Assembly: GCA_963761305.1 (NCBI GenBank)
Contig: CAVXGK010000001.1
Coordinates: 704,001 to 768,000, forward strand
Direction of reading: 5' to 3'
DNA: 64,000 nucleotides
Source of the DNA: an uncultured Gemmatimonadaceae bacterium
GTDB taxonomy: Bacteria; Gemmatimonadota; Gemmatimonadetes; Gemmatimonadales; Gemmatimonadaceae
The translations under genes were made by a program, and so were the position numbers. The notes beneath the pieces were generated by a model. It saw nothing but the letters and a program-made list of their open reading frames with translations, had not been told where the DNA came from and ran no database searches. Shown here one piece after another: positions 2,071-41,590 of the stretch; positions within the stretch are counted from its first letter, which is position 1, and the number at the start of each line of letters is the position of its first letter.

Positions 2071-2098
2071 CCTTCGGGCCTTCATTCTGGACCGACGT

Positions 2099-5546: not shown

Positions 5547-5559
5547 CGCGCAATCATCG

Positions 5560-6984: not shown

Positions 6985-7898
6985 ATCGGCGCCTCCGGGC
7001 GCTCGCGGAAGGCGCCATTCTCGGGAGCGGCATCACGCATCTGACGCGGCGCGCGCATCGCTCCCGGGTGCTGGTGCTCGCGTATCACAACATCGTGCCG
7101 ACGGGCGAAGTGATCGACGGCGATACGAACCTTCACCTGCCGCAGCGCGAGTTCGCGCTGCATCTCGATACGATCCGCCGGACGCACGACGTCGTACCGC
7201 TCACGGCGGTCCTCGAACCGCCGGCCGTGCCGTCGCGTCCGCGCGTCGCCATCACGTTCGACGACGCGTACGCCGGAGCGCTCTCCGCGGGACTCGCGGA
7301 ACTCGCTCGTCGCCAGATGCCCTCGACGATTTTCGTCGCGCCGGGACTTCTCGGGCGCGTCACGTGGTGGGATGCGCTGGCAAAACCCGGCGGCTTCGGT
7401 CTGCCGGAATCCGTTCGCGAGCACGCGCTCGAGCAGTTGGCCGGACGAGGAGAAGGCGTCGTCGAGTGGGCCCGTTCGTCGGGGAACCTGCCGGGCGGTC
7501 TCGAGGCGCGTCCACGCATCGCGCGCCTGGAGGATCTTCAGCGCGCGGCTTCGGCGCCGGGGGTGACGTTCGGTTCGCACACGTGGTCGCACCCGAACCT
7601 TCGCGCGCTGGCGTCGAACGTCGTGCACGAAGAACTCCGGTCGTCGATCGAGTGGCTCAACGCGTGGTTCCCGACGCAGACCATTCCGTGGCTGAGTTAT
7701 CCGTATGGGATTTGGTCGCAGCCGGTTTGCGAAGCGGCGGCGGAGGCGGGTTACACCGCGGCGGTGCGCGTCGACGGCGGGTGGGTCACGCGCGACGGCG
7801 GCGCGTCGCCCTACACGATTCCGCGGCTCAACGTGCCGTTCGGAATGTCCGTCAACGGACTGTCGCTGCGCCTCGCCGGAATCGCGGCAAGCCGCTGA
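6981..7898 (+). CDS. polysaccharide deacetylase (NodB/CE4)
   Basis: LAYHNI, ITFDDAY, GSHTWSHP, LSYPYG. Confidence 0.88.
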   Translation: MNRRLRALAEGAILGSGITHLTRRAHRSRVLVLAYHNIVPTGEVIDGDTNLHLPQREFALHLDTIRRTHDVVPLTAVLEPPAVPSRPRVAITFDDAYAGALSAGLAELARRQMPSTIFVAPGLLGRVTWWDALAKPGGFGLPESVREHALEQLAGRGEGVVEWARSSGNLPGGLEARPRIARLEDLQRAASAPGVTFGSHTWSHPNLRALASNVVHEELRSSIEWLNAWFPTQTIPWLSYPYGIWSQPVCEAAAEAGYTAAVRVDGGWVTRDGGASPYTIPRLNVPFGMSVNGLSLRLAGIAASR

Positions 7899-9135
7899 CG
7901 TCGCTGTCCGACGTTTCGAAAATCTCGAGCAAGCGCTTCTCGTCTTCGCGCCAGTTGTACTTCTCGGTCGCGGCCCGACGTCCGTTGTCGGCGAGCCGGC
8001 GCCGCATCGCGTGATCGCGTAGTAGAGCGACCGTCGCCGCGGCGAGCGATGCTTGATCACCCGGCTCGAACAACACGCCGGCCTGCGTTTCGTGCAACAC
8101 GCGTCGCATCGGCGGCAGGTCCGACGCGACGATCGGGAGTCCCGCGGCCATGTAGTCGAACAGCTTGTTGGCCAAGGTGATTTTCACGTGGCGGCCGGCG
8201 AGAAACGGCAGCAAGCCGATGTCGGACGTGGCGTAGAGCTCGGGCAGCGACGCATGCTCTCGCCAGCCGAGCAGCTCGACGCAGGATCCAAGGCCTCGCT
8301 CGGCGATCAATCGCTCGATGCCGCGACGCTCGTCGCCGTCGCCGACGACGATGAGGCGCGTCTTGGGAAACGCGGCGCGAATCGCTGGCAGCGCGCGCAC
8401 GGCGTCGGCCACGCCGCGATCCCACATGAGGATGCCGACGAACAGCAATACAAATTGGTCGAACTCCGGCCGATCGCGAGCGGGGTCCCGTCGCGCGGCG
8501 CGAATCGCCTCCAGGTCGTCGGGCGTGTTCCCAACCTGAATCACGCGATCGCGCGCGACGCCGAGGCCGAGACAGCGCTCGCGCGACTCGTCGGACACGA
8601 CGATGATCTTGTCGGCCCGCCGAAGCACGGCGCGTTCGACGCGGGCGGCGGCGCCGGGGCTTCTCACGATGCGGTCGCTCCACGACGCGCGGTTGAACTC
8701 GACGCGGTCGCGCAAAAACTCCGGATAGACCTCGGCCATGTCGTACGCGACCGGAATGCCGAGCCGCCGGCCGACGGCGAGCGCCGTCAGCGCCAGAGGC
8801 AGATCGCGCACGAGGATATGGTCGGCGCGACAATCGGTGGCGGCGCGCAGGATCGAAAAGAACCAGACCGGATTGACGGGGAACGGAAAGTTGATCAGGC
8901 GGTTGAGCGCGCGAACGCGGACGAATGGCAACCGCCGCACCGTCATCCAGGGCGCCTCTTCCACGCGGACCTGGCAACGGTCGTTTCGCGAGATGAGCAC
9001 GACTCGGTGGCCCGCTGAGGCCAGGCTGCGCGTCTCTTTGGCGACGCGCGTCGCTCGCCACGGCCAGTCGCCGTCGTAGACGTACAGAATCGTGTGTCGC
9101 TCGGACGTTGGTGCGCTCGATTCGGGCGGCGTCAC
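7852..9135 (-). CDS. GT4 glycosyltransferase (paralog of 24664..25926)
   Basis: GTG start overlapping asnB stop (GTGA); LLFVGILMWDRG, TLANKLFDYMAAGLPIVASD. Confidence 0.88.
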   Translation of the reverse strand: MTPPESSAPTSERHTILYVYDGDWPWRATRVAKETRSLASAGHRVVLISRNDRCQVRVEEAPWMTVRRLPFVRVRALNRLINFPFPVNPVWFFSILRAATDCRADHILVRDLPLALTALAVGRRLGIPVAYDMAEVYPEFLRDRVEFNRASWSDRIVRSPGAAARVERAVLRRADKIIVVSDESRERCLGLGVARDRVIQVGNTPDDLEAIRAARRDPARDRPEFDQFVLLFVGILMWDRGVADAVRALPAIRAAFPKTRLIVVGDGDERRGIERLIAERGLGSCVELLGWREHASLPELYATSDIGLLPFLAGRHVKITLANKLFDYMAAGLPIVASDLPPMRRVLHETQAGVLFEPGDQASLAAATVALLRDHAMRRRLADNGRRAATEKYNWREDEKRLLEIFETSDSDVSGLPRFRRGAATVR

Positions 9136-11078
9136 TGCGCCCAACGCTCCGCCCAGGCCTGGAACATGAGGACGGCCCACAGGCCATGCGCCATTCCGCC
9201 GCGGCCGCGCTGCAGCTCCGTCCACGCGCGGCGAACGCGCGTGGCGTCGAGTCCGTTGTCGCGAAGGCGTTGTTCCGCGAGCAACTGCTCACCCCAATCG
9301 CGCAGACTGCCGCGCAGCCACGCCGCGATCGGCACCTCGAAACCCATCTTCGGCCGATCGACGAGCGACGCCGGCACGTATCGGTTCAGCACCTGACGCA
9401 GGATCCACTTGCCGCGGCCGTCGCGGATCTTCATGGCAAGCGGCAGGCGCCACGCAAATTCGACGACGCGGTGGTCGAGCAACGGCACGCGGACCTCGAG
9501 GCTCACCGCCATGCTCGCGCGGTCCGTCTTCGCGAGCAGATCGTCCGGCAGATACACGCCCTGATCGGCCAGCATCATCCGCTCGATGAGACTCCCGACG
9601 TCCGCGTCGAGCAGGTGCTCGAACTGGCCTGTCGGTTCGGTCTCGCCGCGGACGACGGTTTCCGGGTTCTGCCACGCCGACACCATCGAGCGATAGCGCG
9701 CGGTGGCGTTCGATGCGTCGAGCAGCGCGCCGAAGCTGTCGACCTTGTCTCCGGGCCTTCGAACGCGAAGACTTGCTGGAAGCATGGTTGCGACGCCGCC
9801 GGCGATGGTGTCCAGCGCCGACGGCGGCAGCGAGCGGACCGCGCCGGCGAGGAGGCGTCGCGCCGGGAGCGGCGCTCGGCCGACCAATCCGACGAGACGT
9901 TGTCCGCGGATATAGCGGTGATAGCCGCCGAACAGTTCGTCGCCGCCATCACCGGACAGCGCGACGGTGACCGCGCGGCGCGCGAGCTGGCACACCAGGA
10001 ACGTCGGGATCTGCGACGAGTCGGCGAACGGCTCGTCGAACATCGTCGGAAGGCGCGGCACGACGTCGAGCGCGTCGCGATCGGTGACGATCAGTTGCGT
10101 GTGCTTGGTGCCCAGGTGCTGGGCGACGCCGGCGGCGAACGGCGCCTCGTTGTAGTCGGGATGATCGAATCCGATCGAGAACGTTTCGGCCGGCCGCGTC
10201 GACGCCTTCTGCATCAGCGCCACGACGACCGACGAGTCGACGCCGCCGGACAACAACGCGCCGAGCGGCACGTCCGATTGCATCTGCGACGACACGGCGT
10301 CGGTGAGCAGTGCGTCGAGCTGGTCGATCGCCTCCGCGTCGGACCCGGTAAAGGATTCGGCGAGGCCGCGACGCGCGGCGTCCTCGGCAGACCAATACGG
10401 TTCGGGTGCCGGCAAGGCCGCGGCCGCGTCGGTCACGTGGAGGAGGTGACCCGGCGGAAGCTTGATGACGTGGCGAAAGATCGACCGCGGCGCGGGAACG
10501 TAGAGGAGGCGCAGGTAGGAGGTGAGGGCTTGGCGATCCAGCGTCGCGTCGAAGCTCGGGCCCGCGCGGAGCGCCTTGAGCTCCGAGCCGAACGACACCA
10601 CGCCGTCCTTCGCGTAGACATACAGCGGCTTGATGCCGAGCTGATCGCGCACCAGCGACAGCCGCTTGCGGTGCGCGTCCCAAACGGCGATCGCGAACAT
10701 GCCGACGAAGCGCCGAACCGCCACGTCGATGCCCCACCGTTCGAACGCGGCGAGAATGACCTCGCTGTCCGAATGGCCGCGCCACCGAACGCCCGACTGC
10801 TCCAATTCTTTGCTTAGGCCGCGATAATTATAAATCTCGCCGTTGAACACCATCGTGTAGCGGCCGGTGGCGGACCGCATCGGCTGGTGTCCAGCCTCGC
10901 TGAGGTCGAGGATGGCCAGCCGCCGGAACCCGAGGCCCACTCCGTCGGCGGCGTCGGACCAGATCCCGGCGTCGTCGGGGCCGCGATGCGTGATCGGCAC
11001 GATCATTTTGGCGAGCGTCGCGTCAAGATCGCCCGTCGTCGCGCCGCGGCGAACCAGGAGTCCAGCCAATCCGCACAT
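9132..11078 (-). CDS. asnB: asparagine synthase (glutamine-hydrolysing)-like amidotransferase
   Basis: MCGLAG N-terminal Cys, HRGPD, RRLAILD, FNGEIYN, LSGGVDSS, SGDGGDELFGGY, DRASMAVSLEVRVP, KMGF. Confidence 0.93.
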   Translation of the reverse strand: MCGLAGLLVRRGATTGDLDATLAKMIVPITHRGPDDAGIWSDAADGVGLGFRRLAILDLSEAGHQPMRSATGRYTMVFNGEIYNYRGLSKELEQSGVRWRGHSDSEVILAAFERWGIDVAVRRFVGMFAIAVWDAHRKRLSLVRDQLGIKPLYVYAKDGVVSFGSELKALRAGPSFDATLDRQALTSYLRLLYVPAPRSIFRHVIKLPPGHLLHVTDAAAALPAPEPYWSAEDAARRGLAESFTGSDAEAIDQLDALLTDAVSSQMQSDVPLGALLSGGVDSSVVVALMQKASTRPAETFSIGFDHPDYNEAPFAAGVAQHLGTKHTQLIVTDRDALDVVPRLPTMFDEPFADSSQIPTFLVCQLARRAVTVALSGDGGDELFGGYHRYIRGQRLVGLVGRAPLPARRLLAGAVRSLPPSALDTIAGGVATMLPASLRVRRPGDKVDSFGALLDASNATARYRSMVSAWQNPETVVRGETEPTGQFEHLLDADVGSLIERMMLADQGVYLPDDLLAKTDRASMAVSLEVRVPLLDHRVVEFAWRLPLAMKIRDGRGKWILRQVLNRYVPASLVDRPKMGFEVPIAAWLRGSLRDWGEQLLAEQRLRDNGLDATRVRRAWTELQRGRGGMAHGLWAVLMFQAWAERWAQ

Positions 11079-11758
11079 CAGTGCGCCCGCGAGAACAAGG
11101 TCGCCGATGGCCGCCAGTCCGCGACGTCCAGTTCGGGGAAGGGCGAGCCACTTGGTACGTCGACCGCCAACGCCGCGATGCAACCGTCGAACAGATGCAA
11201 GTTCTTGAGACAGTAGCGGCCGACGCGCCCTGCCTCCCGCGGCCTGACCGACACGCTCTTGAGCGGGACACTGAGCCCCTGGCCGAGCGCTTTGAGATAG
11301 GCCTCCTTCAGCGTCCAGTGGGCGTAGAACGAAGCAACCGAGTCCGACGAAGCGCCAACCCGCGCCAGTTCCTCAGGCGTGAGCGAGTCCGAGACGACAT
11401 CCGGCGATACGGCCACTATGCGCTCGAGATCGAGCCCCAAGGGCATCGTCCCTACGGCGATGGCCACGGCGCTTCCCGAATGGGTCACGCTGAAGTGCAG
11501 CGTCTCCATGCCACTCAGGCGCGGTTTTCCCCACCGCTCGTATTCGAATCGCAAGGCGTCGGGCGCCTCGCCCAGATCCCGCGCGAGAATGCAGCGCAGC
11601 GCGATCCGCGCGCAGACGAACGTCTGCCGTGCCGGCTCCGAGACGAATCGGGCCGCCCGCGCACGCTCGTCGTCGCTCAGCACCGCGAGAAGCGATTCCA
11701 GATCGAATACGCTGCAGTCGGCAATTCGCCAGACGGCGACGCGATCAATCGCCGGCAC
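11078..11758 (-). CDS. Sfp-type 4'-phosphopantetheinyl transferase
   Basis: LSDDERARAARF, GKPRL, FSVTHSG, LGLDLE, WTLKEAYLKALGQGL; TGATG coupling to asnB. Confidence 0.92.
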   Translation of the reverse strand: MPAIDRVAVWRIADCSVFDLESLLAVLSDDERARAARFVSEPARQTFVCARIALRCILARDLGEAPDALRFEYERWGKPRLSGMETLHFSVTHSGSAVAIAVGTMPLGLDLERIVAVSPDVVSDSLTPEELARVGASSDSVASFYAHWTLKEAYLKALGQGLSVPLKSVSVRPREAGRVGRYCLKNLHLFDGCIAALAVDVPSGSPFPELDVADWRPSATLFSRAH

Positions 11759-14700
11759 GAGACTCGGTGGCCGGCTCGGATTGAACCGCGTCGATCGCGG
11801 TACGAATGGCCTCCGCCAAACCGAGCGAATATGGAAGTTCGAGCACCGACTCATGGTTGCCGTCGCAGACGTAGACGTCACGACGAGCCGCGACACGTTC
11901 CCAGGCGAGTCTCGGGTCGAGGTCGTCAGCGAGTCCTCGCAGCGATGGATCGTCCGACACGAAGAGCGCGATCGAGCCAGGGTATTTCCCCGCTCGGTAC
12001 CGCTGGAGCACCTCAGCCGTCGCGTCGAGGACGACGCGGAGGTCGCCGGCAGTATCCTTGAAACCGTCGCGCTTCGCAACCTGGACCGCGTTCGCGACCT
12101 GGTCCCGTTCGATCCGATTGGCGCGGGTGGTCTGTCGGCGGTCCTGGAAGAATTGGACGATGCCCTTGCCGTTCGTTCGCGCTTCGCGCAGTTGGTATCG
12201 GAGCCGCTGAGCCTTGAATCGTATCGTTTCGAGGCGCCCTGAGGGGACACCGGGCAGCAGGCAGTTGACCATACCGAGGAGCGCCACCGTTTCGCGTTCC
12301 CGCAGGAGTTGCTGCGCCATCTCGTAGGCGATGAGGCCTCCCGCACAATACCCGACGAAATAGTACGGCCCGTGCGGCTGATGCCGGCGGATGAGCGCGA
12401 GATACTGCGCCGCGCGCTCTTCGACCCGTTCGATGTCCGCCACCGAATCTGGAAAGGCCGAACCAAGGCCGTAGACCGGAAGATCGTCGCCCAGCCCGGC
12501 GACGATGTGTTTCAGCGAGAACATTCCGAGCGCGGCCCCGCCCGGAATCCAGTACAGCGGCGGCCGCGACCCGGCGGCCCGAATCGTCACGAGAGTGTGA
12601 CGCCCCTTCACGTGAGTGTCGTCCTCGATGTGCTTGGCGAGCTGCGCCACGGTGGGCGCTTCGAACAGAGTGTTCAACGGAATCCGTTTGCCAAACACTT
12701 GGGCAGCACGTGACATCAGGCGAACGGCGAGCATCGAGTGACCGCCGAGGTCCCAAAAACTGTCCTCCACGCTGACCCTGGGAATCTCGAAGACTTCGGC
12801 CCACACCTCGGCGAGCTGCTGCTCCACGTAGGTTCGCGCCGCCACGACCACACTCACCGTCGGCACGGCGGCGCCAGTCGGGGCCGGGAGGGCGCGACGG
12901 TCGACCTTGCCGCTTGGCGTCGTCGGTAGCCGATCGAGCTGCACGAACGCCACGGGGATCATGTAATCGGGCAAGCTCACCTTGAGCGCCGCCCGCAGGG
13001 TCGATGGGTCCGCGGCGCCCGCATCGGCGATCACATATGCCACCAAGCGCTTGTCGCCGGGCGTATCCTCCCGCGCGATCACCACCGCCGCACGAATCCC
13101 CGCCTGCGCCGCCAATACACTCTCGATCTCCCCCAACTCGATCCGAAACCCGCGAATCTTCACCTGATGATCCGTGCGGCCCAGGCATTCGATCACGCCG
13201 GCGCGTGAGTAGCGCGCCAAATCCCCCGTCCGGTACAGCCGTTCCCCGGGGAGAAATGGGTCGGCGACGAAACGCTCTGCGGTCAACTCCGGCTGGCCGC
13301 GATAGCCACGGGCCACTCCGGCGCCGCCGATGTAGAGCTCTCCAGTCGCTCCCGGCGGCACGGGACACCGATGCGCGTCGAGAATGTAGGTGGTGGTGTT
13401 CGCCGGCGGCCGTCCGATGTAGATGACCTGATCCCCTTGGCGAATGCGATGAAACGCCGAGTAGATCGTCGTTTCGGTCGGCCCGTAGCCGTTCCACGCC
13501 TCGCTCGACGCCGCGGCGAGGGCCGCACCCAACTCCACCGAAATAGCTTCCCCGCCGCAGATGGTTTTGACCCGGCCATCCCCGCGCCACCCGGTCTCGA
13601 ACAGCATCTTGAACGTCACCGGTGTCGCTTGCACGATCGTCGGCTCGGTCCCCTCGATCAGCGCGCGCAACGCTTCGGGATTGAGCGCCGTTTCGCGAGG
13701 AGCGAGGATGATCCGCGCCCCGGTCGCCAGCGGCATCAGCGTTTCAACTCCAGCGATGTCGAATGATACGGTCGTCACCGCGAGCACTGAATCGCGTGCC
13801 GTCATCCCCGGCACCGCGCGCATCGACCCGAGCAAATTCAGAAAGCCGCCCCGCGTGACCTCCACGCCCTTTGGCCGCCCCGTCGAGCCCGACGTGTACA
13901 ACACGTACGCGAGGTGCTGGGGCCCCACCGCGACCACCGGATTCTCCGCCCGTGCCGCCGCGTCGTGCCCGATCTCCACCGGCACCACGGCCGCGGCGGT
14001 GTCGCGAAACAGCCCCTCGTGCGACGCATTCGTCACGACCGCGCGCAATCCCGCATCCCGCGCCATGTAGACGAGCCGCTCCCGCGGAAAGCCGGGGTCC
14101 AGCGGAACGTATGCACCCCCCGCTTTCACGACGGCGACCAAGGCGATCAGGAGATCAGGCGTGCGCTCCAGACACACACCGACCGGCTCATCGGGGCCGA
14201 CTCCGCACCGGATCAGTTCGTGGGCCAGACGATTCGCCCGCGCGTTCATCTCCGCGTAGGTGACCTCCTCGTCGCCAAACGTGATCGCTGTCCGATTCGG
14301 CCCCGCTTCGACCTGCGCCTCGATCAACTCCGCCAGTGACCGGTCAAGGGGATGGACCGCGTCCGTCTGATTCCAGTCGACCAATACGCGCTGTCGCTCC
14401 TGCGCGGTCAGCATCGGCACCTGCCAGACCGCCGCTCCGGTATCCGACGCCCACGCCGTGAGCATCGTCGTCAGCTGCCCCAGTATTTGGTCCGCCGATT
14501 CGCGGTCGAACAGTTGCGTGTCGTAGTCGAGCTTGAGCGCAAGCGCGTCGCCGCCGTACGCCATCAGCGCGAGCGGGTACCCCGGCTGTTCGCGCAGAGT
14601 GCAAACGCGCCGCTCCCACGCCCCGCCTCGCGCGCGTAGCGCCTCTCCGAATTCGTCGTGCTCGAACATCAGAAACGAGTCGAACAACGATGCCGACGCA

Positions 14701-15767
14701 GGCAAGTCACTCACCTGCTTGATGTCGACCAGGGGCATGTGCTCGTAGCCGCGGAGAGCGACCCATTGTTGGCGTACGCGCTGGAGCCATTCGCGCACGG
14801 GCAACTCGGCGTCGATCGCGATCCGAATCGGGACGGTGGCGAGGAACAGCCCGACCATCGCGTCAGCGTCGGGAATCGTCCCGCGCCGAGTCGTTTTCGT
14901 CACGCCGAACACGACGTCGGATTCGCCGCTATGTCTCGCCAGCAGCAGCGCCCAGGCGGCAATTACGAGAGAATTGAGCGATAGTTGCTCTCGCGTGGCC
15001 AGGGCGCGCAGCTCCTCGGTCACCGCACCGGAAAGGCGCACACGCGCTTCGCCAAAGTGTTCGCTCGTGCCATCGACGTGATCGCCGCGAGCGACGTGCG
15101 GCAGCGGCGTCGTCGCGGTGAATCCGGACAACGCGTCCCGCCAGAAGGCGCGCGCTGCCGACGCGTCTTGCGCCGCTACCCATTCGGCATATTCGCGATA
15201 CGGACGTCTGGCCGCCGCGTCGCCGTTCTCGTTCGCCTCGGCCCCGTCATAGACGGAGAAGACGCGCTCGAGGATCGTCGCGAACGATCGTCCATCGATC
15301 AGGATGTGATGAAACGTCCAGATCATTCGGAAGTCGGCCGCTCCGAGTTGAAGCAGCGACACCCGCATGGCCGGCGCCGTCGCGAGGTCGAACCCCTCGC
15401 GGCGGTCGTCGCGCAAGAACTCCTCGATCCACGCGTCGCGGTCCGACGCGGTCCGCTGGCGCAGATCGTGGGCACGGAACGGCAACGTCACCGTGTCGGC
15501 GCTGTATTGCGCCGGCGACTTCCGATTCTCCCAGACGAACGCCGTCCGCAATGTCGGAAAGTCACGCAGAGCGCGTTGCCAACTTGCCTCGAGGCGCGCC
15601 GCGTCGATCGGCTCGCGCAAATCGGCAACGATCTGTTCGACGTCGGTGCCGGAATGCCGGCCCCGAAGCCAATGAAAGAGCATTCCCGACTGAATCGGAG
15701 TCAGCGGATACAGCGCGGGCCGCGCCGCGCTGGACTCAGGGGGGCGAAGGTCTTCGACCGCCGTCAC
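11745..15767 (-). CDS. monomodular NRPS C-A-PCP-TE; A domain predicted Gly/small residue
   Basis: [77 protein letters not shown]. Manually read specificity code DIVQIGGIYK resembles the Gly code DILQLGLIWK. Confidence 0.93.
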   Translation of the reverse strand: MTAVEDLRPPESSAARPALYPLTPIQSGMLFHWLRGRHSGTDVEQIVADLREPIDAARLEASWQRALRDFPTLRTAFVWENRKSPAQYSADTVTLPFRAHDLRQRTASDRDAWIEEFLRDDRREGFDLATAPAMRVSLLQLGAADFRMIWTFHHILIDGRSFATILERVFSVYDGAEANENGDAAARRPYREYAEWVAAQDASAARAFWRDALSGFTATTPLPHVARGDHVDGTSEHFGEARVRLSGAVTEELRALATREQLSLNSLVIAAWALLLARHSGESDVVFGVTKTTRRGTIPDADAMVGLFLATVPIRIAIDAELPVREWLQRVRQQWVALRGYEHMPLVDIKQVSDLPASASLFDSFLMFEHDEFGEALRARGGAWERRVCTLREQPGYPLALMAYGGDALALKLDYDTQLFDRESADQILGQLTTMLTAWASDTGAAVWQVPMLTAQERQRVLVDWNQTDAVHPLDRSLAELIEAQVEAGPNRTAITFGDEEVTYAEMNARANRLAHELIRCGVGPDEPVGVCLERTPDLLIALVAVVKAGGAYVPLDPGFPRERLVYMARDAGLRAVVTNASHEGLFRDTAAAVVPVEIGHDAAARAENPVVAVGPQHLAYVLYTSGSTGRPKGVEVTRGGFLNLLGSMRAVPGMTARDSVLAVTTVSFDIAGVETLMPLATGARIILAPRETALNPEALRALIEGTEPTIVQATPVTFKMLFETGWRGDGRVKTICGGEAISVELGAALAAASSEAWNGYGPTETTIYSAFHRIRQGDQVIYIGRPPANTTTYILDAHRCPVPPGATGELYIGGAGVARGYRGQPELTAERFVADPFLPGERLYRTGDLARYSRAGVIECLGRTDHQVKIRGFRIELGEIESVLAAQAGIRAAVVIAREDTPGDKRLVAYVIADAGAADPSTLRAALKVSLPDYMIPVAFVQLDRLPTTPSGKVDRRALPAPTGAAVPTVSVVVAARTYVEQQLAEVWAEVFEIPRVSVEDSFWDLGGHSMLAVRLMSRAAQVFGKRIPLNTLFEAPTVAQLAKHIEDDTHVKGRHTLVTIRAAGSRPPLYWIPGGAALGMFSLKHIVAGLGDDLPVYGLGSAFPDSVADIERVEERAAQYLALIRRHQPHGPYYFVGYCAGGLIAYEMAQQLLRERETVALLGMVNCLLPGVPSGRLETIRFKAQRLRYQLREARTNGKGIVQFFQDRRQTTRANRIERDQVANAVQVAKRDGFKDTAGDLRVVLDATAEVLQRYRAGKYPGSIALFVSDDPSLRGLADDLDPRLAWERVAARRDVYVCDGNHESVLELPYSLGLAEAIRTAIDAVQSEPATESRAGD

Positions 15768-16060
15768 GAAGCAACACTCATCTCATCGTCCGCGGGATTC
15801 GCACGCACGGCATCCGATTTCGAGGGTGACCGGCGAATGCGCCAAGTCAGGCGCGTAGGCGTCCGCCGATCAGGCATCTGACCGACAAGTAGGTGGCCCC
15901 GAGGTGACGACGAAATGTCGCACTCGCTCCCGGTTTTCCGAGTCGGCCTCGAACAGGCGGACCATCAAGATTTCTTACCTGGGGAACATAGGCCCGAACG
16001 CACCGACCGGGGCGCCGCCCGGTGTTCAGATAACGCCCACTCGATTGGTCTCGACGCATG

Positions 16061-19000: not shown

Positions 19001-20101
19001 CTCGTATCGCTCGAGCATGACGAGCGAATCAAACAGCGACGCGGCCGCGGGCACCGGGCTTCCCTGTTTGATGTCGACGAGCGGCACGTGCTCGTGACCG
19101 CGCAACACGACCCACTCGTCGCGCACGCGACGCAACCATTCGACGACCGACAGTTCCTGATCCACGGCAACCCGAATAGGAATGGTGGCGAGGAAGAGCC
19201 CGACCATCTCGTTCGCGCCGGGGATCGTGCGGCCTCGGGTGCTCTCGGCGACGCCGAACACGACCTCCCGCTCGCCGTTGTGCCGCGCCAACAAGAGCGC
19301 CCAGGCGGCGACGACCAGCGATTCGACCGAGAGCTGCTGTCGCGCCGCGAGTGCGCGGAGGTCGTCCGTTGCCGATTCCGACAAACCGACGCGCGCTTCG
19401 TCGAACGGGTCGCTCGCCGGTTCGACCGGTTCGGCGTGCGGAAGCGGCGTCGTGGCGGTGAATCCGGCCAGCTTGGCGCGCCAGAAATCGCGAGCGACTT
19501 CTCCGTTCTGCGCGGCGATCCAATCGACGTACTCTCGATACGGCGTCTCTTTCGCCGGCCCGGTGCCGGTCGCCGAGCCGGAATCGTACGCCGCGAAGAC
19601 GCGATCGAGAATGATCTCGCAGGATCTGGTGTCGAACAGGATGTGGTGAAACGTCCAGACCATCTGGAATTCCGTTTCGCCGAGCTGGAAGAGCGACACG
19701 CGCGTGGCGGGCGCGGCGGCGAGATTGAAGCCCTTGCGGCGGTCGTCGCGGATGAATTCCCGGATCTGGGCGACGCGATCACCGTCGGCCAGGTGACGAA
19801 GGTCGTGAACCTCGAAGGGCAGGCGCGTGCCGTCGTCGATGTACTGCGCCGGCGACGCGAGGCCTTCCCAGGCGAACGCGGTGCGCAACGCCGCGAACTC
19901 CGAGACGACCCGCCGCCAGCTCGCCTCGAGTCGCGCCGGATCGATCGTCTCGTGGAGTTCGGCGACGACCTGCTCGATGTCGGTTCCCGAATGGCGGTCG
20001 CGGAGCCAATGAAAGAGCATCCCCTCCTGAATCGGAGAGAGGGGACACGAGTCGCCGTGCGTGCCGGTCGACGCGAACCGGAAACGGTCCGTCGCCGTCA
20101 C
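16061..20101 (-). CDS. monomodular NRPS C-A-PCP-TE; A domain predicted L-Thr
   Basis: GTG start at 20101 overlapping the CapA stop. [40 protein letters not shown] give code DFWNIGMVHK (canonical Thr). PCP: LGGHS. TE: GYCAGG. Confidence 0.93.
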
Positions 20102-21186
20102 TCGGCACCTCCCAACGCCGCGCGAACCTTGTTGCGCACGGTTCGTCCGACGAGTTGGCCGAGGGCCGCAGGGGGCACGCGCCAGATGCGCATCAGGGCG
20201 TAGGGATACACCGCGCGTCGTTGGTCGCGCCACGTTCGCTGGATCTCGCGCTCGTACTCGTCGGCCGAGAGGGCGCGAATTTGTTCGGCGCGGACGAGAC
20301 CTTCCTCGTGGGCGGAAACCGCAGGCTGATAATTCGTATCCAGGCGCGTGCTGCGAACGGTGGCTGCGACGACGGCGCCATCCGAGATCTCGGCGCACAA
20401 CAAGAGACCCCGGCGAAACGGCTCGTACCACACCATGTCGCCGACGCAGTTGCCGAGGCTGTACGCGATCACGCCGTCTCGATAGCGCTCCACGGGTCGA
20501 GCGACGTGCGGATGATGTCCGAGCACGAGCGTTGCGCCGGCGTCGATCACCGATCGCGCAAACGTCGTCTCGTCGACGGATGGAACGGGGACGAACTCCT
20601 CGCCCCAATGCAGCGACACGATCACCACGTCCGCGTCGCGCCGCAGTCTCGAAACGTCGGCGCGAATCTCGTCCGGCGATCCTTCCGCATACGGAGGTTC
20701 GTCCGCGCTGTACTGTCGCGGTCTCAGGCAATACGCGAGAATGCCGACGTGCACTCCTTTGACGACCAGAGTCGCGGGCTCGCTGGCCCACGGCCGCGTG
20801 CCGCGGAGGCCGCACGGCGTGATGCCGGCCGCGCGCAACGACGCGACCGAGGCATCAAACGCGTCGACGCCGTGTTGGGATGCGTGATTGTTGGCGACGT
20901 TCAGGACCGAGAATCCCGCCGCGCGCAGCATCTGCGCAAACCGCGGATCTCCGCGCAGTTGTCGCGACGCCCAACTCGAGGTCGCCGAACTACGCGACGA
21001 GAGCGGCACTTCGAGATTCCCGAAGACGACGTCGCCCTGTTGCAGCGACGGTCGAAGTCCGGCGAGCACGCCATCGAGATCGGAGCCGGAATAGCGACTC
21101 CCAAACCCGAATCCGACCGATGTCGGAGAGTCCCCGAGCTGCAGATCGCCGGCGGCGACGACGCTAAGCGATGTGGCCAGACTCAT
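20098..21186 (-). CDS. CapA/PGA_cap family metallophosphoesterase-like protein
   Basis: AAGDLQLG, FGNLEVP, VANNH, VSLHWGEE, LGHHPHV, YSLGN. Confidence 0.88.
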   Translation of the reverse strand: MSLATSLSVVAAGDLQLGDSPTSVGFGFGSRYSGSDLDGVLAGLRPSLQQGDVVFGNLEVPLSSRSSATSSWASRQLRGDPRFAQMLRAAGFSVLNVANNHASQHGVDAFDASVASLRAAGITPCGLRGTRPWASEPATLVVKGVHVGILAYCLRPRQYSADEPPYAEGSPDEIRADVSRLRRDADVVIVSLHWGEEFVPVPSVDETTFARSVIDAGATLVLGHHPHVARPVERYRDGVIAYSLGNCVGDMVWYEPFRRGLLLCAEISDGAVVAATVRSTRLDTNYQPAVSAHEEGLVRAEQIRALSADEYEREIQRTWRDQRRAVYPYALMRIWRVPPAALGQLVGRTVRNKVRAALGGAE

Positions 21187-21213
21187 CGGACGAGTGCCCC
21201 CCAAAGGCACGTC

Positions 21214-23072
21214 TCACTGGCGTATTGACCCACCAAGGTAATGCTCGGCCCATACGAACACATTACCCAAGAGCCAAAGCGCTTCCCCGCGATCGCGGGT
21301 CCCCCGAACGTGTTCGTCGACCACTCGCTGGAGCGTGGGCCGGTCGAACAGATCCGCGGCCGGGTGGTCCGGATCGCGGAGTTTCGTGAGGAGCGGAGCG
21401 AAGACAGGGGAACGGAACCAAGCGTCGAGCGGAATGCCGAACCCCGACTTCGCACCGCGCGTGATGGCCGGACTGAGATATCGCTCCGCCACCCGCTTTA
21501 CGACTCGTTTGTTTTCTCGGCCCGAGAGCTTGTACCGCCCTGCGACACTCACGCCCCACTCGACGAGCGGGATGTCGAGGAACGGAACGCGGCCCTCGAG
21601 GCTCGTCGCCATCGACATTCGGTCGATGCGGTCAAGCGCGCAGCACAGGTAAGTCAGCAACTCGTATCGAGACAACGTGGCCACGGGTCCGGCGTCCGAT
21701 CGCGCCAGCTCGAGCAGGGAGCGACGCTCGTCGAACGCGGCCCCGATGGGGTTGGCTGAAAGGCGCGCGGCGAGATCCGGGCTCACATACGCGGAGTTGA
21801 GCAGGATCGCGTCATCCAGCCCCTGGCGGAGACTGCTCGCCAGCTTTGCCGGACGGTGCCCGGGCCCGGCCGCGATGGCTCCGGCGAGCGCGGTGCGAAT
21901 CACGCCGGGGAGTGGCTCGGCGACACCGCGCCAGCGCGCGATGTGGTAGCGCGGATAGCCGCAAAACAATTCGTCGGCGCCTTCGCCTGTGAGTATGACC
22001 GTCACGTACTGGCGCGCGAATCGACTCAACTGGTACAGGGGAATCGAGTTCGGATGGCTCAACGGTTCGTCATGATGGCGTACAAGGAAAGGCAACAGCC
22101 CCAGGAACTCGCTCGGTTCGGCGAACGACAGTATGATGGTCGGATTTGATGCGCGCTGCCGTGTCGGCCGCAGGCCCACGCTCGTCCCATGCCGGATCGT
22201 CGAATCCGACGGCGAAGGTCTGAAGCGTGTGTCGCGAGGCAGATGCCGCGTACGCGCTCACGAGCCCGGAGTCGACACCGCCGCTACAAAACGTGCCGAG
22301 CGGCACGTCGCTCATGAGCTGAGACTCGACCGCGCCACGAAGCAGGGGGTCGAGCGCCTCGGCCGCCTCGTCCAGGGATCCCGTCGACTGTTCGTCGGCT
22401 GGCGGGGCCCAATAGCGGGTGGGTGTGACGCGTCCGTGTTCGAAGACGGCGGTATGCGCTGGTGCGAGTCGCCGTATGCCGTCGAAGAACGTATTCGTTC
22501 CGGCGACATATCTGAAACACGAGGTATTCCTGCAGGCTCTCGCGACGCACACCGACGGGCACGCCGGCCGCGAGAATGGCCTTGATCTCGGAACCGAAAT
22601 ACAGCGTCCCGTCGCGAACGCAATAGAACAGCGGCTTGATGCCGAGGTGATCGCGCGCGAGCAGAACGCGGCCCCGCCGCACGTCGTGAAGCGCGAACGC
22701 GAACATCCCGTTGAAGCGACGGCACGAAGCCGTCACCCCACTCCTCGTAGGCGTGAACGAGGACCTCGGTGTCGCAGTGGGTCCGAAAGCAATGGCCCCG
22801 GGCTGACGAGATCGTCGTTGATCCGCGGGAAGTTATAGATCTCCCCGTTGTAGGTGACCCAGACCGTTCCGTCCTCGTTCGACAGCGGCTGCGCTCCACC
22901 GGCGAGGTCGATGATGCTCAGTCGCCGATGCGCGAGCGCGACGCCGCCCTCGACGTGCAGCCCCTCACCGTCGGGACCGCGATGTTCGAATGGCGTCTCG
23001 CATTCGGCGCACGATCGCGAGATCGATCGGCCGCGCCGAGTCGGAATGTGCCAGGCCGCAGATGCCGCACAT
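21214..23072 (-). pseudogene. asnB: second AsnB-like amidotransferase, about 5 frameshifts in the 5' half (pseudogene or sequencing error)
   Basis: MCGICG start at 23072. HRGPDG, HRRLSIID, YNGEIYN, FNGMFAFAL, RDHLGIKPL, SGGVDS, TGEGADELFCGY, DRMSMATSLEGRVPFLD are spread over different frames (shifts near 22987, 22802, 22722, 22515, 22128). Confidence 0.85.
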
Positions 23073-23115
23073 TAGCGGGCCTGCTTCTGGCCGTCGGCCG
23101 AGAAGGTCGTTCGTC

Positions 23116-24486
23116 TCATGACGTCGTCTCGTTGACGACCATGCGGAGCTTCCCGCGCTGCGTGCGGGGCATTGCGGTCACGCGCACGACGTCGACGCGC
23201 ATCGTCGGACCGAGCCGGTTGCCGAGCTCCCGGAGAAGGGTCGCGCGTTCGACGTCGGAGACTTCGCTCTCGGCGACATACTCGAGCCGCACGTGGTCGG
23301 CCGCGTCCTGGACGATGCGAGATTCCTGAAACGACGACACCGCTTTGAAGATCGGATCGAGTCGCCCGACTCGCCGGCCATCGGGCGTGATCACCACGTC
23401 GTCGGAGCGACCGACCAGAGTCGCGATGATGGGATAGGCGCGGCCGCATGCGCATCCCTCGTCGCCGAGGACCGCGAGATCTCCCGTTCGGTAGCGGATC
23501 AGCGGCATCACCGGATTGATGAAGCCGGTCGCCGTGATCTCCCCGATCTCGCCAGCGGCCGCCGGCGCGCCGTCGCGAAGCACCTCGACGATGCCGAACT
23601 CCGAGTTGACGTGATACGACCCGCGTTCGCATTGGGAAATGAACGCCGCCATCTCACCTCCTCCGTAGTGGTCGAACACGGGCGCACGAAACGCTTCCAC
23701 GAAGAGTCGACGCACCTCGACGGACAGGGTCTCGGACGACGTGATGACGGCGACGGGGCGAATGCTATCGATCCCGTGAGCGACGACGTGGCGCGCGATT
23801 GGTTCGAGGCTCGACGGGTAGCTGTCGATCAGGGCAGGTTTCCACCGCGACAGGTGCGCAACGTAGTCGGGAATCGTCGCGGCGCCGATGTGATAGGAGG
23901 AATACAAGACGGCGTTGCCGGCGGCGTTGTGCCGCCAGTAGGGCGGCCGCGTTTGATTCGGCCGCACGATCGTGCGTCCGGCGAAGGTCGCGACGCGCGC
24001 GCCGTCGGCCACCCCGGCCCATTCTCGCAAGCGCGCGAAAAAAGCGTAGTTGCGTTGGAGCGTCGGTCGATCGCAATAGACCGTGAGCGGCGTGCCGGTG
24101 GTACCTCCCGTGTGAACCTCGAGCAGCTTTCCTTTCCTGGACGTGTCGGACACAAAATCGGCGAGATGCCGCCGTACCTCGTCCTTGCTCACGGTGGGAA
24201 GTTCGCGGAGCTGCTCCAGATAACGCAGCGCCGATTTTCCCCCCGCGCGGAGCGGTTTGTACCACGGCACTGCCTCGGCGGCCGACTCGAGGGCCGCGTT
24301 GGCTCGGCCGAGCTGTAGTCTTTGAAGATCCGGCGCGGGCAGCCACTGCGTCTGTCGGAGCTCCGCCAGGGCAGCCTGGTGGACTCCCCCGTAACGCCGA
24401 CCACGCAGGGACAGTCCGTAGGCCGACAGGAGCGCGTTCTGCATCCAGACCGGAAGCCCAAAGTAGACTTGAGTCTGGAAACTCAC
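23116..24486 (-). CDS. phenylacetate-CoA ligase / CapK-like adenylate-forming enzyme
   Basis: HTGGTTGTP, YPSS, DHYGGGE, MPLIRYRTGD, GRSDD, RGKLR. Confidence 0.88.
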   Translation of the reverse strand: MSFQTQVYFGLPVWMQNALLSAYGLSLRGRRYGGVHQAALAELRQTQWLPAPDLQRLQLGRANAALESAAEAVPWYKPLRAGGKSALRYLEQLRELPTVSKDEVRRHLADFVSDTSRKGKLLEVHTGGTTGTPLTVYCDRPTLQRNYAFFARLREWAGVADGARVATFAGRTIVRPNQTRPPYWRHNAAGNAVLYSSYHIGAATIPDYVAHLSRWKPALIDSYPSSLEPIARHVVAHGIDSIRPVAVITSSETLSVEVRRLFVEAFRAPVFDHYGGGEMAAFISQCERGSYHVNSEFGIVEVLRDGAPAAAGEIGEITATGFINPVMPLIRYRTGDLAVLGDEGCACGRAYPIIATLVGRSDDVVITPDGRRVGRLDPIFKAVSSFQESRIVQDAADHVRLEYVAESEVSDVERATLLRELGNRLGPTMRVDVVRVTAMPRTQRGKLRMVVNETTS

Positions 24487-24663
24487 GGGCTCTTCCTAAC
24501 CGGGCAGGCAATGCGGCGCGGAGAAATCAAGGATGACCAACTCGACGGGTGGGAGGCGGCGCGGAGGGTGCTTGAGTTGACGAAAATGAATAAGCCCAGA
24601 AACGGGATTGTGCAGACCGGCGACGCTCTAAATCTCTCATTTTGCGCCTGATGCGCGCGACGA

Positions 24664-25926
24664 ATGAATCGTTACGACGGTCTTGTGGCCTCGGGCGTTA
24701 GCGAGGCGGTGGCGAATGAGAGGCCGCGCGTCCTGTATGTGTATCAGGGGGACTGGCCGCGCAACGCCACCCGGGTCCGGAAACAGACGCAGGCTTTGGC
24801 CAGCGCCGGTTATCACGTGCGCCTGTTGGCCGGCAATCCCCGCGCCAAGCCGCGACGAGAAGACGTTGGTTGGATGGAGGTTACAAGGCTTCCATCGTTT
24901 GGAAGCGGGCGAACCGGCAAGATGTTGGGGTTCCCCATATTTGCCAATCCCTTTTGGATCTGGCACATCTGGCGCGCCGCCAGACGATTTCAGCCGGACT
25001 GCATGATCGTGCGCGACCTTCCTCTGGCGCCGGCGGTCCTGAAGCTCGGCGAAGTGCTCGGCATCCCGGTCCACTACGAGATGGCGGACGTGTACCCGAT
25101 CGCCCTGCGGGCGAACCGCGCCGATCACCCCGGGCTGGCATCTCGACTGGCTCGGAACGCGACGGTCGCCGAGGCGCTGGACCGGAAGGTGATCCGACGC
25201 GCCGCGTCGGTCTTCGTCGTCTCCGAGGAATCGCGGGAACGTTGCCTGTCCCTCGGGGCGTCGCCCGCCGCCGTGTCCGTAGTGGGCAACACGCCGGCTC
25301 GGCCGACCGACCTGTCGACCGTCCCGCCGGTCCCCGATGACCTGAAAGGCTGGGAGGATCGGGTTGTGGTTCTGTTCCTCGGCAATCTCCTGGCGGACCG
25401 TGGGCTCGCCGTCGCGATCGATGCCATGGCGAGCGCGGTGCGGTCGAGCCCGCGTCTTGCACTCGCGATCGTCGGTGATGGACCCGAGGAGCGCGTGCTC
25501 GCCGAGCGAATCAAGGCACGCGATCTCAGCGACACCGTTCGCATGCTCGGTTGGAAGAGCCACGAGCATCACGAGGCGTACTACCGACACGCGTCGATTG
25601 GTCTGCTTCCATTCCTCAGGACTGAGCACATCGAAATCACGTTGCCGAACAAACTGTTCGACTACATGGGTGCCGCGCTCCCGGTGATCGCGACGGACGT
25701 GGCGCCGTTGCGACGGATCATCGACGAGACCGGCGCCGGCGTCCTCGTGCCCCCCGGCGACGCGGCGGCGCTGGCCGACGCGCTCGTAGGATTGGCCGCC
25801 GATCCCACGCGGCGCGGTGCGCTTGGCGCCGCGGGGCGCGCGGCGATCGAGAGCACCTACTCGTGGGACCGCGATCGTGCTCGAATGCTGCAGCAGATCC
25901 GGCGATCGCTCGGAGCCTGTCGATGA
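24664..25926 (+). CDS. GT4 glycosyltransferase (paralog of 7852..9135; start may be GTG 24709)
   Basis: YVYQGDWP, VRDLPLA, TLPNKLFDYMGAALPVIATD. Confidence 0.88.
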   Translation: MNRYDGLVASGVSEAVANERPRVLYVYQGDWPRNATRVRKQTQALASAGYHVRLLAGNPRAKPRREDVGWMEVTRLPSFGSGRTGKMLGFPIFANPFWIWHIWRAARRFQPDCMIVRDLPLAPAVLKLGEVLGIPVHYEMADVYPIALRANRADHPGLASRLARNATVAEALDRKVIRRAASVFVVSEESRERCLSLGASPAAVSVVGNTPARPTDLSTVPPVPDDLKGWEDRVVVLFLGNLLADRGLAVAIDAMASAVRSSPRLALAIVGDGPEERVLAERIKARDLSDTVRMLGWKSHEHHEAYYRHASIGLLPFLRTEHIEITLPNKLFDYMGAALPVIATDVAPLRRIIDETGAGVLVPPGDAAALADALVGLAADPTRRGALGAAGRAAIESTYSWDRDRARMLQQIRRSLGACR

Positions 25927-26726
25927 GCGGCCTCCAGAACGCCATGCCGTCGCGCGGGTTTCGCGTCGCGGTGCTCACGTGCGGCGATCTCGGAGTCGAA
26001 GTCGCGAACACGCTGCTTCACCTGGACGGCATCGAATCGGTCGCGGTGCTCAAGTCGCCGTGGCTTCGACGGCCGCTGACGCTGCGCCAGAAATTCCGAC
26101 ACGTCGTTCGCACGCAGGGACTCGGCGGGCTAGTCCACGTTGCGCGCGCGCGCGTGATTCCCGACCCCGCGCCATCGCACCCCGCGGCACGACCCGATCC
26201 ACGGGTCATGCTCGTCGAGGTCGACGACTTCCACTCGATCGCCGCCCGCGAGGCGTTGCGTCTGTTTCGATCCGACCTCGGCGTGGTGGCCGGTACCTAC
26301 ATCTTGCGCGACGGGGTGTACGACATCCCTCGTTGTGGTTCCATTAATCTGCACTCGGGCAAGGCGCCGCAATACCGCGGCGCGGCGCCGGCATTCTGGG
26401 AGTTGTACAACGGCGAGTCCGAGGTTGGAATCACCATTCATCGCGTGGCGGCGGCGCTCGACGCAGGGGACATGTTCAAACAAGAGACGTTCACGCTGAA
26501 TTCCGCTCCGGAAGGCGATCCGCTCGTGTACATCGATCGATACCGCCGCGAGGTGTTGCGGCCGAACGGGGTGCGGATGCTCGCCGACGTCGTGCGCGAG
26601 ATTGCCGCGGGAACCGCGGTCGCCACGCAGCAGGATCAGGATGCCGCAACCACGTATCGCGCACCGGACCACAAGGCGATCCTCGAGCTTCGATCGCGCG
26701 TCCGCCACCGCAGAGGCGCGGCGTGA
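25923..26726 (+). CDS. formyltransferase family protein (probable sugar N-formyltransferase)
   Basis: INLHSGKAPQYRGAAP, GITIHRV, LDAGD; ATGA overlap with the GT4 stop. Confidence 0.82.
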   Translation: MSGLQNAMPSRGFRVAVLTCGDLGVEVANTLLHLDGIESVAVLKSPWLRRPLTLRQKFRHVVRTQGLGGLVHVARARVIPDPAPSHPAARPDPRVMLVEVDDFHSIAAREALRLFRSDLGVVAGTYILRDGVYDIPRCGSINLHSGKAPQYRGAAPAFWELYNGESEVGITIHRVAAALDAGDMFKQETFTLNSAPEGDPLVYIDRYRREVLRPNGVRMLADVVREIAAGTAVATQQDQDAATTYRAPDHKAILELRSRVRHRRGAA

Positions 26727-27499
26727 GTCGTCACATCAAGGCCGTGCTGGGGTTCATCGTTTTCGGGCTCGGACTCCACCGCGTTCTGTTTCGCGGAAAA
26801 GCCGTGATCGTGCTGTTTCACCGCGTCGACGATCGCTACGCGTCGGATGCCATCAGCTGTTCGGTCGACAAGTTCGACCAGTTCTGCACGTTCTTTCGCC
26901 GGTATTTCGAGGTCGTGCCACTCACGGTCCTGGTCGACAAGGTCCGCCGCGGCGAGGATGTCAGCCGACACCTCGTGGTGACCTTCGACGACGGCTATCG
27001 CGACAACCACGTGGTGGCCGCGCCGCGACTCAAGCGCGACGCACTCCCGGCGTGCTTCTTCATCGCCACCGACTTCATCGAAAGCGACCGGGTCCCCTGG
27101 TGGGACCGCGACGCGGGAATCGAGTCGGAGTGGATGAGTTGGGAGCAGGTCCGCGATCTCTCGGCCCAGGGGTTCGAGCTCGGCGCCCACACGTGCAATC
27201 ATGTCGATCTCGGGGTCGTCACGGGCGACGAGGCGCGGCACGAGATCGCGGACTCGGGCGAGCGGCTGACGACCGAAACGGGAAGTCGCGTGAGCCTGTT
27301 CAGCTATCCGTACGGCCGCCAGCATCAGATCACGGAAGCGAATCGACAGACGGTGCGCGACGCGGGATACGCGTGTTGTCTCTCGGCGTACGGCGGAAAC
27401 GTCACGCCAGAGTCGAGCCCGTACGAGCTACGCCGAATCCCGGTGTCGCAGTGGCACCTGAACGCGTATCAGTTCGGGTTCGAGGCGATGACGGCCTGA
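26723..27499 (+). CDS. polysaccharide deacetylase (NodB/CE4)
   Basis: LFHRV, VTFDDGY, GAHTCNH, FSYPYG. Confidence 0.88.
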   Translation: MSRHIKAVLGFIVFGLGLHRVLFRGKAVIVLFHRVDDRYASDAISCSVDKFDQFCTFFRRYFEVVPLTVLVDKVRRGEDVSRHLVVTFDDGYRDNHVVAAPRLKRDALPACFFIATDFIESDRVPWWDRDAGIESEWMSWEQVRDLSAQGFELGAHTCNHVDLGVVTGDEARHEIADSGERLTTETGSRVSLFSYPYGRQHQITEANRQTVRDAGYACCLSAYGGNVTPESSPYELRRIPVSQWHLNAYQFGFEAMTA

Positions 27500-38845: not shown

Positions 38846-38872
38846 CGGTGTCGAACGCGGGTCAACCCGCGC

Positions 38873-41007: not shown

Positions 41008-41510
41008 TCTGCGTTCAACCCCTCGGGTGGCTAGCGGTTGCATCCAGGAAAGTATCGGCTCGTCCGAGGACGATCCGGCGGTGAAAACCGGTCGGGATGC
41101 ACGACAATCTAGTCCGGACGCTGCGGCCGTTCGTCCGCGCAAGGACCGTTCGGTCTCCGCGGGCTAACATCAACTCGTTCAAGGCAGTTCGATCAATCGG
41201 AGATACTCGTGCGTCGGTCGGATGGGAGCACCGGCCCTCGCGGGACCTGGGCGTGATCTTCGTTGGTGGTGAACGACCTCGCCCCGGAAGGCAGGAGTGG
41301 TGCCAACGAGCCGGACAATCCTTACCGCTGACTTACCGCAACACATTGTGGTGCCGACGCGTCGCCCGGAATGCGCCTTTGTTGCTCCCATGCATCGACC
41401 GGCCTGTGACCAAGCGGGCTGCGATTGCTAAGTCCATGATCTGAAAGGGCATCAGTGAGCCTAGTGTAACGGATTGGATAAACTCCGGAAGGGCTCGGAG
41501 GCGCCGGAAG

Positions 41511-41525: not shown

Positions 41526-41590
41526 TGTCCGACGGGCGTTCTCGGATGCCGAGTGACGTACCACACCCGCAATGGGGAGACTGGGTCGCC

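Follow-up and report, generated by a model that had tools for sequence, protein, structure and literature searches.

An optional cassette of nonribosomal peptide synthetase modules and a phosphopantetheinyl transferase in a Gemmatimonadaceae exopolysaccharide operon

Analysis of a 64,000-nucleotide stretch of contig CAVXGK010000001.1 (positions 704,001 to 768,000; "the window") from an uncultured Gemmatimonadaceae bacterium (genome G000) showed two nonribosomal peptide synthetase (NRPS) genes and a phosphopantetheinyl transferase (PPTase) gene within a minus-strand run of a polysaccharide locus. Each NRPS protein contains condensation (C), adenylation (A), carrier (T), and thioesterase (TE) domains. 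An earlier note on this DNA had proposed that these modules attach amino acids to a glycan instead of making a free peptide. The gene order that it gave for the run is confirmed by the coordinates:

23116..24486, minus strand: PaaK/F390-synthetase-like adenylate-forming ligase, the first gene of the run
21214..23072, minus strand: AsnB-like amidotransferase (upstream asnB), with five single extra bases in the assembly
20098..21186, minus strand: CapA/PGA_cap metallophosphoesterase-fold protein, a distant relative of the epimerase MslH, belonging to the host operon and flanking the cassette slot on its left
16061..20101, minus strand: NRPS1, 1346 residues, C-A-T-TE, Thr type
11745..15767, minus strand: NRPS2, 1340 residues, C-A-T-TE, Gly-like
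11078..11758, minus strand: Sfp-type PPTase, overlapping NRPS2 and asnB
9132..11078, minus strand: AsnB-like glutamine amidotransferase with N-terminal Met-Cys-Gly, the host-operon gene right of the slot
7852..9135, minus strand: GT4 glycosyltransferase, the last gene of the run

The stop/start overlaps reported before were also found, at 4 nt for CapA/NRPS1, 14 nt for NRPS2/PPTase, 1 nt for PPTase/asnB, and 4 nt for asnB/GT4, and a gap of 293 nt separates NRPS1 from NRPS2. Related-strain contigs from public soil runs (four runs from three studies) bridge the asnB/CapA, NRPS1/NRPS2, NRPS2/PPTase, PPTase/asnB, and asnB/GT4 junctions. The interval originally assigned to the run, 7852..27499, is on the minus strand only up to 24486, whereas 24664-27499 is a divergent plus-strand unit. 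Similarly, the surrounding region is a polysaccharide locus as described, but it is larger than the ∼49 kb first assigned to it; wza, wzc, and a priming sugar transferase gene lie to the left of the window, adding ∼6 kb and bringing the locus to ∼55 kb in all. In agreement with the note, the scan of window proteins showed no gene for a halogenase, P450, exporter, or resistance function next to the NRPS genes, but the neighboring CapA, AsnB, PaaK-like, and formyltransferase families serve small-molecule pathways too.

Comparison with congeners showed natural presence and absence of the NRPS genes at a fixed position. In the window genome, CapA and asnB flank a slot that is filled by two modules and the PPTase; in genomes G005 and G026, the slot contains a single Gly-like module with the PPTase. 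The same operon is found in G015 and G017 with an empty slot, CapA being followed directly by asnB, and the slot of G019 contains a gene for a 330-residue glycosyltransferase-like protein (L201:17736-18725; PF13524, weak). The TE was not found in G015, G017, or G019, and the PPTase is present or absent together with the NRPS. By these comparisons, the system consists of NRPS plus PPTase, is optional, and needs only one module. The CapA, both asnB, and the PaaK-like genes all occur without the NRPS and therefore belong to the host operon, not to the system; a CapA orthologue is present in 10 of 401 genomes of the family. The conserved Gemmatimonadaceae-type exopolysaccharide operon thus has the NRPS-PPTase pair as an optional cassette. 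A frameshifted copy of the cassette was found in G366 and G218.

Both NRPS proteins have open reading frames with all four domains in one chain and intact catalytic motifs, as judged by Pfam order and motifs, and each is therefore a complete single-module C-A-T-TE NRPS. In NRPS1, the C motif is HHILFDT (His152-His153, with the Asp kept and the Gly replaced by Thr), the A code read by alignment is DFWNIGMVHK, which predicts Thr, the carrier serine is Ser1019, and the TE has Cys1149 in GYCAGG and His1314. The usual acid position of this TE is occupied by Asn1176, and Asp1281-Asp1282 follow the next strand. In NRPS2, the C motif HHILIDG is of the canonical HHxxxDG form, the A code read by alignment is DIVQIGGIYK, predicted to be Gly-like although no exact code match was found, the carrier serine is Ser1011, and the TE residues are Cys1141, His1305, and Asn1168. 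Models of the TE and C domains (pLDDT ∼90) match the TE and C folds. The two proteins are 63%, 74%, and 65% identical in the C, T, and TE domains, respectively, compared to only 27 to 28% over A-core residues 661-780. By this pattern, NRPS1 and NRPS2 share one chassis but have different adenylation cores, as would fit a duplication for a second cargo.

The best matches of the C domains were McyB, PvdL C3 (titled E2-C3-A3), bacitracin synthase 3, TycB, and SrfA-C, at E values of 1e-79 to 1e-50, with all others at 1e-27 or weaker. We take the McyB, TycB, and SrfA-C domains to be of the DCL class, and by this similarity, together with the HHxxxD motif, the window C domains, including that of NRPS2, are DCL-like. 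However, no upstream module with an epimerase domain, which would supply a D-aminoacyl donor to a DCL domain, was found; these two are the only PF00668 domains in G000 (93% complete), and no epimerase domain was found in that genome. The C domain must therefore use an unusual donor. Three other carriers are present in the genome, all of them far from the cassette.

The TE used alone as a query returned a sharp group of ∼27 proteins at at least 40% identity. It is rare: at an E value of 1e-25, 8 of 401 genomes of the family have it, and it was seen in 3 of 31 genomes of the genus. Samples of 401 genomes each from the class and from an acidobacterial class gave 1 and 5 carriers of the TE, respectively. 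Among 31 TE family members, the Cys and His are invariant, the usual acid site (position I) is Asn in 25, Gln in 4, Asp in 1, and Glu in 1, and a second site after strand 199-207, placed by alignment and model position, is Asp or Glu in 28. In a tree of 68 TE domains, made up of hand-chosen best hits plus a few outgroups, 54 rows form one supported clade with three branches: a core branch that includes the window proteins, an acidobacterial branch, and one that follows polyketide synthases (PKS) where flanks suffice (seen in L038, L039, and L048). The core-clade C domains keep His-His-x-x-x-Asp in 24 of 24 cases and an Arg after the motif in 22. Among the A codes of the clade are Thr codes, several of the DI-Q type, DALWLGGTFK (near the Val code), VDWTSSLADK (PKS branch), and DAWQFGLIDK, which is presumably a Gln code. 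The front end varies much more; it may be a C domain, a degenerate C domain, a formyltransferase (two proteins, P0017 and P0146), or nothing at all, and in P0033 a polysaccharide deacetylase is fused behind the TE. Some members have two modules (P0021, P0144, P0145, and P0182). A-T-TE(Cys) is thus what stays constant in the family, whereas the front end is exchangeable.

The neighborhood scoring that the earlier note had suggested was carried out on 158 loci, of which 107 with at least 5 kb of non-NRPS flank were scored and 51 were dropped. A locus was called glycan-linked if it had a glycosyltransferase, flippase, polymerase, Wza/Wzc, or priming transferase gene. Homologues with the TE motif of this family lie mostly in polysaccharide loci; of their 23 loci, 16 had core glycan genes, compared to 8 of 32 with other Cys TEs and 6 of 42 with Ser TEs; without the flank filter, the counts were 18/31, 9/49, and 8/64, respectively, and 6/14 for loci with an unread motif. 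Of the 12 distinct core-branch loci (G366 being included by synteny), nine were clearly glycan-linked and a tenth on a weak fragment (G298). Another, L115, has two acyltransferase-3 genes, asnB, and a PPTase with no glycosyltransferase within 8.5 kb. Five new acidobacterial loci were fetched, one of which was a duplicate of L061, and three of the other four were glycan-linked. One of these is L221, a one-strand operon of genes for a priming transferase, Wza, Wzc, Wzx, PPTase, a C-less A-T-TE, Wzy_C, GT4, GT2, and a deacetylase; in L224 and L225, a carrier-TE gene adjoins Wzc-type genes. In other genera, the module lies beside a Wzx, Wzy_C, deacetylase, or acyltransferase-3 gene, so the neighbors differ but the loci are still glycan loci.

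Taken together, these features show a real, intact, glycan-linked accessory cassette. We give a probability of about 0.5 to the reading that NRPS1, NRPS2, and the PPTase are an optional decoration cassette that transfers N-capped aminoacyl groups, in parallel, to an amino sugar of the glycan. Each module would work alone within a Wzx/Wzy-type surface polysaccharide operon. The PPTase would arm the carrier, as is known for its family, and the A domain would load Thr (NRPS1) or a Gly-like residue (NRPS2), as predicted from the codes. The N-terminal domain would add a small acyl cap to the amine, from a donor that is probably not a carrier-bound peptide. The cysteine TE would then take up the unit as a thioester and transfer it to a sugar at a free amino (or hydroxyl) position, probably in the cytoplasm and on a nucleotide sugar or a lipid-linked repeat. 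Transfer through the carboxyl by the cysteine TE is the simplest chemistry common to the family, because A-T-TE is constant, the front end is variable, and the amine would be blocked where a formyltransferase is present; that the cysteine TE is the transferase is indicated by the relatives that lack a C domain or start with a formyltransferase. The host operon has possible suppliers of amino sugars in WecB, a DegT aminotransferase, and three deacetylase-family proteins. Two modules would give two alternative decorations, not a dipeptide, because single-module loci exist and each module has its own intact TE. Extended to the monomodule family as a whole, which would then be glycan aminoacyl-transferases with a swappable A core (Thr, Gly, Val-like, and Gln-like codes), an exchangeable cap, and a TE acting as transacylase, the same idea has about an even chance of being right.

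The proposal of NRPS-driven glycan aminoacylation therefore stands in part. Its link to polysaccharide is borne out by the fixed slot and by the core-branch and new acidobacterial loci, but several observations weigh against it. In the sister clade, TEs of this type are found at the end of PKS-NRPS hybrids without glycan genes (L038, L039, and L048), and glycan genes were also absent from the short flanks of the core-branch locus L118/L125, from the neighborhood of the acidobacterial L222, and from the sequence examined for L040 and L121/L124. Loci with an unread motif had glycan genes in 6 of 10 cases. The references for the tally were drawn from the window and the family loci (same-locus hits removed), which favors the family, and the loci are related; for these reasons no P value is given. 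The TE-deacetylase fusion is a single sequence. The core-clade C domain may make the key bond itself, because its His-His-x-x-x-Asp motif is fully kept. The predicted Thr and Gly-like loading agrees with the note, but for the N-acylation by the C domain no donor carrier or acyl-loading enzyme traveling with the cassette was found. Finally, amino acids could be added by other routes, because FemAB-like and ATP-grasp genes are also part of the locus.

Other readings of the same genes differ mainly in which bond is made and what carries it. The linkage could be the opposite one, with the C domain joining an activated uronate to the amine of the carrier-bound amino acid and the TE releasing a uronamide with a free carboxyl; the uronate would be activated by the PaaK-like ligase or the synthetase domain of AsnB, and CapA might turn L-Thr into D-allo-Thr. 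This would account for a DCL-like C domain that has no upstream module in the genome and must have an unusual donor, and for the conservation of its active-site motif and the following Arg. Uronic acid amides with D-allo-threonine are named in reference titles for Escherichia coli O46, O110, and O134 in the part of PMC7685785 seen, and excerpts of PMC8179263 and PMC10406935 describe MslH, the only solved relative of CapA, as an epimerase of the residue next to the free carboxyl. However, such a linkage is impossible for the C-less and formyltransferase-led members. Operons that lack the NRPS also have the PaaK-like, asnB, and CapA genes, CapA is also found beside lone Gly-like modules and lacks two of eight MslH residues, and both asnB products start with Met-Cys-Gly, like ordinary glutamine amidotransferases. 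We therefore regard this linkage as doubtful.

It is also unlikely that the product is a diffusible or lipid-linked small molecule, such as an N-acyl amino acid or, for the Thr module, possibly a β-lactone as in obafluorin, that is merely coregulated with the polymer. In its favor, GxCxG TEs with the acid off the usual position form β-lactone or β-lactam rings, according to the portions of PMC6668435 and PMC11298585 seen, and that position is Asn in most of the TEs here; the PKS-linked sister clade and the two-module members point the same way. That NRPS1 and NRPS2 act in line to build an acyl-Thr-Gly dipeptide unit, bypassing the first TE, is quite improbable. The tandem order, the canonical DCL-like C domain of NRPS2, and a hint of a second contig shared by Thr and Gly-like proteins (P0004 and P0012) would suit it, but both TEs keep Cys and His, G005, G026, and most other loci have a single Gly-like module, there is no epimerase domain in the genome, and the A-core swap fits duplication for a second cargo. 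Least probable, and barely credible, is that the cassette is a passenger in a recombination-prone locus with a function unlinked to the polymer. Its patchiness (3/31 genus genomes) and the frameshifted copy in G366 and G218 would be expected of a passenger, but its genes overlap those of the host operon on both sides at start and stop codons, their GC and third-position GC contents resemble those of neighboring genes, and the glycan context recurs with different neighbors in two phyla.

The decoration reading recalls several known systems without matching any of them. The Dlt system D-alanylates teichoic acid by means of an A domain and a phosphopantetheine carrier, so the logic of putting an amino acid on a surface polymer is analogous. 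However, free-standing DltA and DltC were not found; A and carrier are fused here with C and TE, and DltA models gave 220 to 307 bits compared to cut-offs of 476 and 560. No DltB (MBOAT) or DltD was found among the window proteins scanned, and MBOAT and SGNH queries from G015 had no match in G000 (E 1e-6), these families not having been searched by profile. Membership in the Dlt system was therefore rejected, leaving the analogy only. AB3403 of Acinetobacter baumannii (PDB 4ZXH/4ZXI) has an acid at TE position I, where NRPS1 and NRPS2 have Asn in place of Asp, and its C domain matches the modules weakly (E 1e-12 versus 1e-79 for the best). The part of the paper seen calls AB3403 uncharacterized and states no glycan link. 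The TEs of ObiF1 (obafluorin) and SulM (sulfazecin) share with those here the GxCxG motif (Cys in 31 of 31 here) and a nonacidic residue at the usual acid position. Their catalytic Asp comes after strand β7 (position II); in the model of the window TE, an Asp pair after the next strand is a candidate for this acid. A β-hydroxy or β-amino substrate, as used by these enzymes, is predicted for NRPS1 (Thr), but the codes of NRPS2 and of most family members do not predict one, and the Gln-Cys-Asn motif of SulM differs from the Tyr/Phe-Cys-Ala found here.

For MysE, the one-module shinorine synthetase, the sections of PMC12232313 seen describe a need for an Sfp-type PPTase and the addition of Ser or Gly to a nonpeptide scaffold, a job done by an ATP-grasp enzyme in other strains. 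However, that product is a small-molecule sunscreen with an imine linkage through the amino group, and the scanned proteins of the window include none from mycosporine genes. A C-domain-like enzyme can O-acylate glucose (PMC13638107, in part). N-acetyl-Gly, N-acetyl-Ser, and N-acetyl-allo-Thr groups are listed for E. coli O antigens in the part of PMC7685785 seen, and excerpts of PMC5207245 describe Gly acylating an amino sugar in the Clostridium difficile type B flagellin glycan. The peptidyl part of that glycan has been proposed to depend on FemAB-like and ATP-grasp families (PMC5207245 and PMC5207246, in part). The genes named for it are FemAB-like, ATP-grasp, cyclodeaminase-like, and FdtB-like, with no NRPS module, and the present locus has FemAB-like and ATP-grasp genes too; neither main text contains the word "ribosomal". 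A full-text literature search, with subscription journals mostly outside its coverage, did not turn up any paper in which a polysaccharide is aminoacylated by an NRPS module.

That bacterial surface glycans carry amino acids is chemically well documented, and the papers cited here propose FemAB-like or ATP-grasp enzymes as the makers. If the decoration reading is right, the cassette is a new form of carrier-dependent aminoacylation of surface polymers and a third route to amino-acid-bearing capsules and exopolysaccharides, independent of tRNA and ATP-grasp and readable from a specificity code. Orphan "NRPS clusters" in soil genomes would then have to be reclassified as surface-glycan genes, natural-product enzymology and glycan enzymology would be joined, and the decoration would be predictable from sequence. 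The locus lends itself to testing in vitro because the operon can be compared between congeners that have two modules, one, or none and because the two paralogues differ only in predicted cargo.

Further analysis of the neighboring CapA showed that MslH matched it at an E value of 1e-17 and that its score was 78 bits, compared to a cut-off of 700. The MslH residues used as a test were the metal site (Glu44, Asn87, His259, and His261) and the His88/Asp91 and His295/Asp11 dyads. The metal and His residues are largely kept; Glu59, Asn100, His101, His193, and His227 of CapA align with site residues, and Asp14 fits Asp11 by position only. However, Asp91 and His261 are replaced by Gln104 and Gly195, and Gln and Gly are present in 5 of 5 aligned orthologues. 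CapA is also not tied to the NRPS, and its assignment as an MslH-type epimerase was rejected.

The rest of the locus consists of the following parts:

619..7898, plus strand: convergent part with Wzy_C polymerase/ligase, ATP-grasp, GT4, WecB, GT4-like, and deacetylase genes
24664..27499, plus strand: divergent unit of GT4 (24664-25926), formyltransferase (25923-26726), and polysaccharide deacetylase (26723-27499)
37640..49137, strand unspecified: right part with GT4, Wzt/Wzm, RmlD-like, FnlA/PseB-like, GT2, DegT aminotransferase, FemAB-like, and deacetylase-like genes

The divergent unit is kept in congeners both with and without the NRPS, and its GT4 is 44% identical to the one at 7852..9135. 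The FemAB-like protein scores above the TIGR03019 cut-off, and the deacetylase-like gene lies upstream of its gene. The single extra bases in the upstream asnB are near 22985, 22798, 22719, 22514, and 22120, and the gene is intact in relatives. Because further frameshifts occur at 27520-32500 (in GT4, AsnB-like, and Ig-repeat genes, with neighboring genes intact), a local assembly error is the likely cause of both sets.

Several side observations were made. The Wzt/Wzm ABC transporter genes (38873-41007) share the locus with Wzy_C, Wza, and Wzc, and Wzx was not found in the window; for this reason the export route may be mixed, or the locus may encode two glycans. Large Ig-like (Big_2) repeat proteins at 34103-37327 and 31600-33800, found in relatives too, are possibly glycan-linked surface proteins. 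Between wzm and the RmlD-like gene, a plus-strand reading frame of 317 residues (41711-42661) has a good coding score and no Pfam match.

In the TE family, the PKS-linked sister clade (L026, L027 [L038, L039], and L048) has a 2,200-residue reducing PKS module followed by C-A-T-TE(Cys) with the code VDWTSSLADK, which we take to be of a β-amino acid type; no glycan genes were seen nearby, and the product of this orphan Gemmatimonadota pathway would be a small molecule or a lipid. The acidobacterial loci L062, L061, L077, L145, and L146 have a Gly-type C-A-T-TE in tandem with a C-less A-T-TE, both of which end in a cysteine TE, next to GT4, GNAT, PPTase, UDP-glucose dehydrogenase, and carbamoyltransferase genes. 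Stand-alone carrier-TE proteins (GWCGGG) that lack an A domain are encoded at L224:5287-6468, L225:750-1925, and L222:9660-10700, two of the three beside Wzc-type genes, and would need an A domain in trans.

The three NRPS-less congeners have an SGNH hydrolase gene in the locus (G015, L206:6550-11166; G017, L203:3030-9074; G019, L202:12294-14796), and two of them also have MBOAT and FkbH-like genes. Queries with these SGNH, MBOAT, and FkbH-like proteins had no match in G000 and none in 60 kb of G005. They are possibly an alternative acylation cassette, although the genomes are few and L113 has an FkbH-like gene together with an NRPS. In the same locus, G005 (L013:5113-7026) and G019 (L202:9088-11004) encode a GT2 domain fused with a zinc alcohol-dehydrogenase domain.

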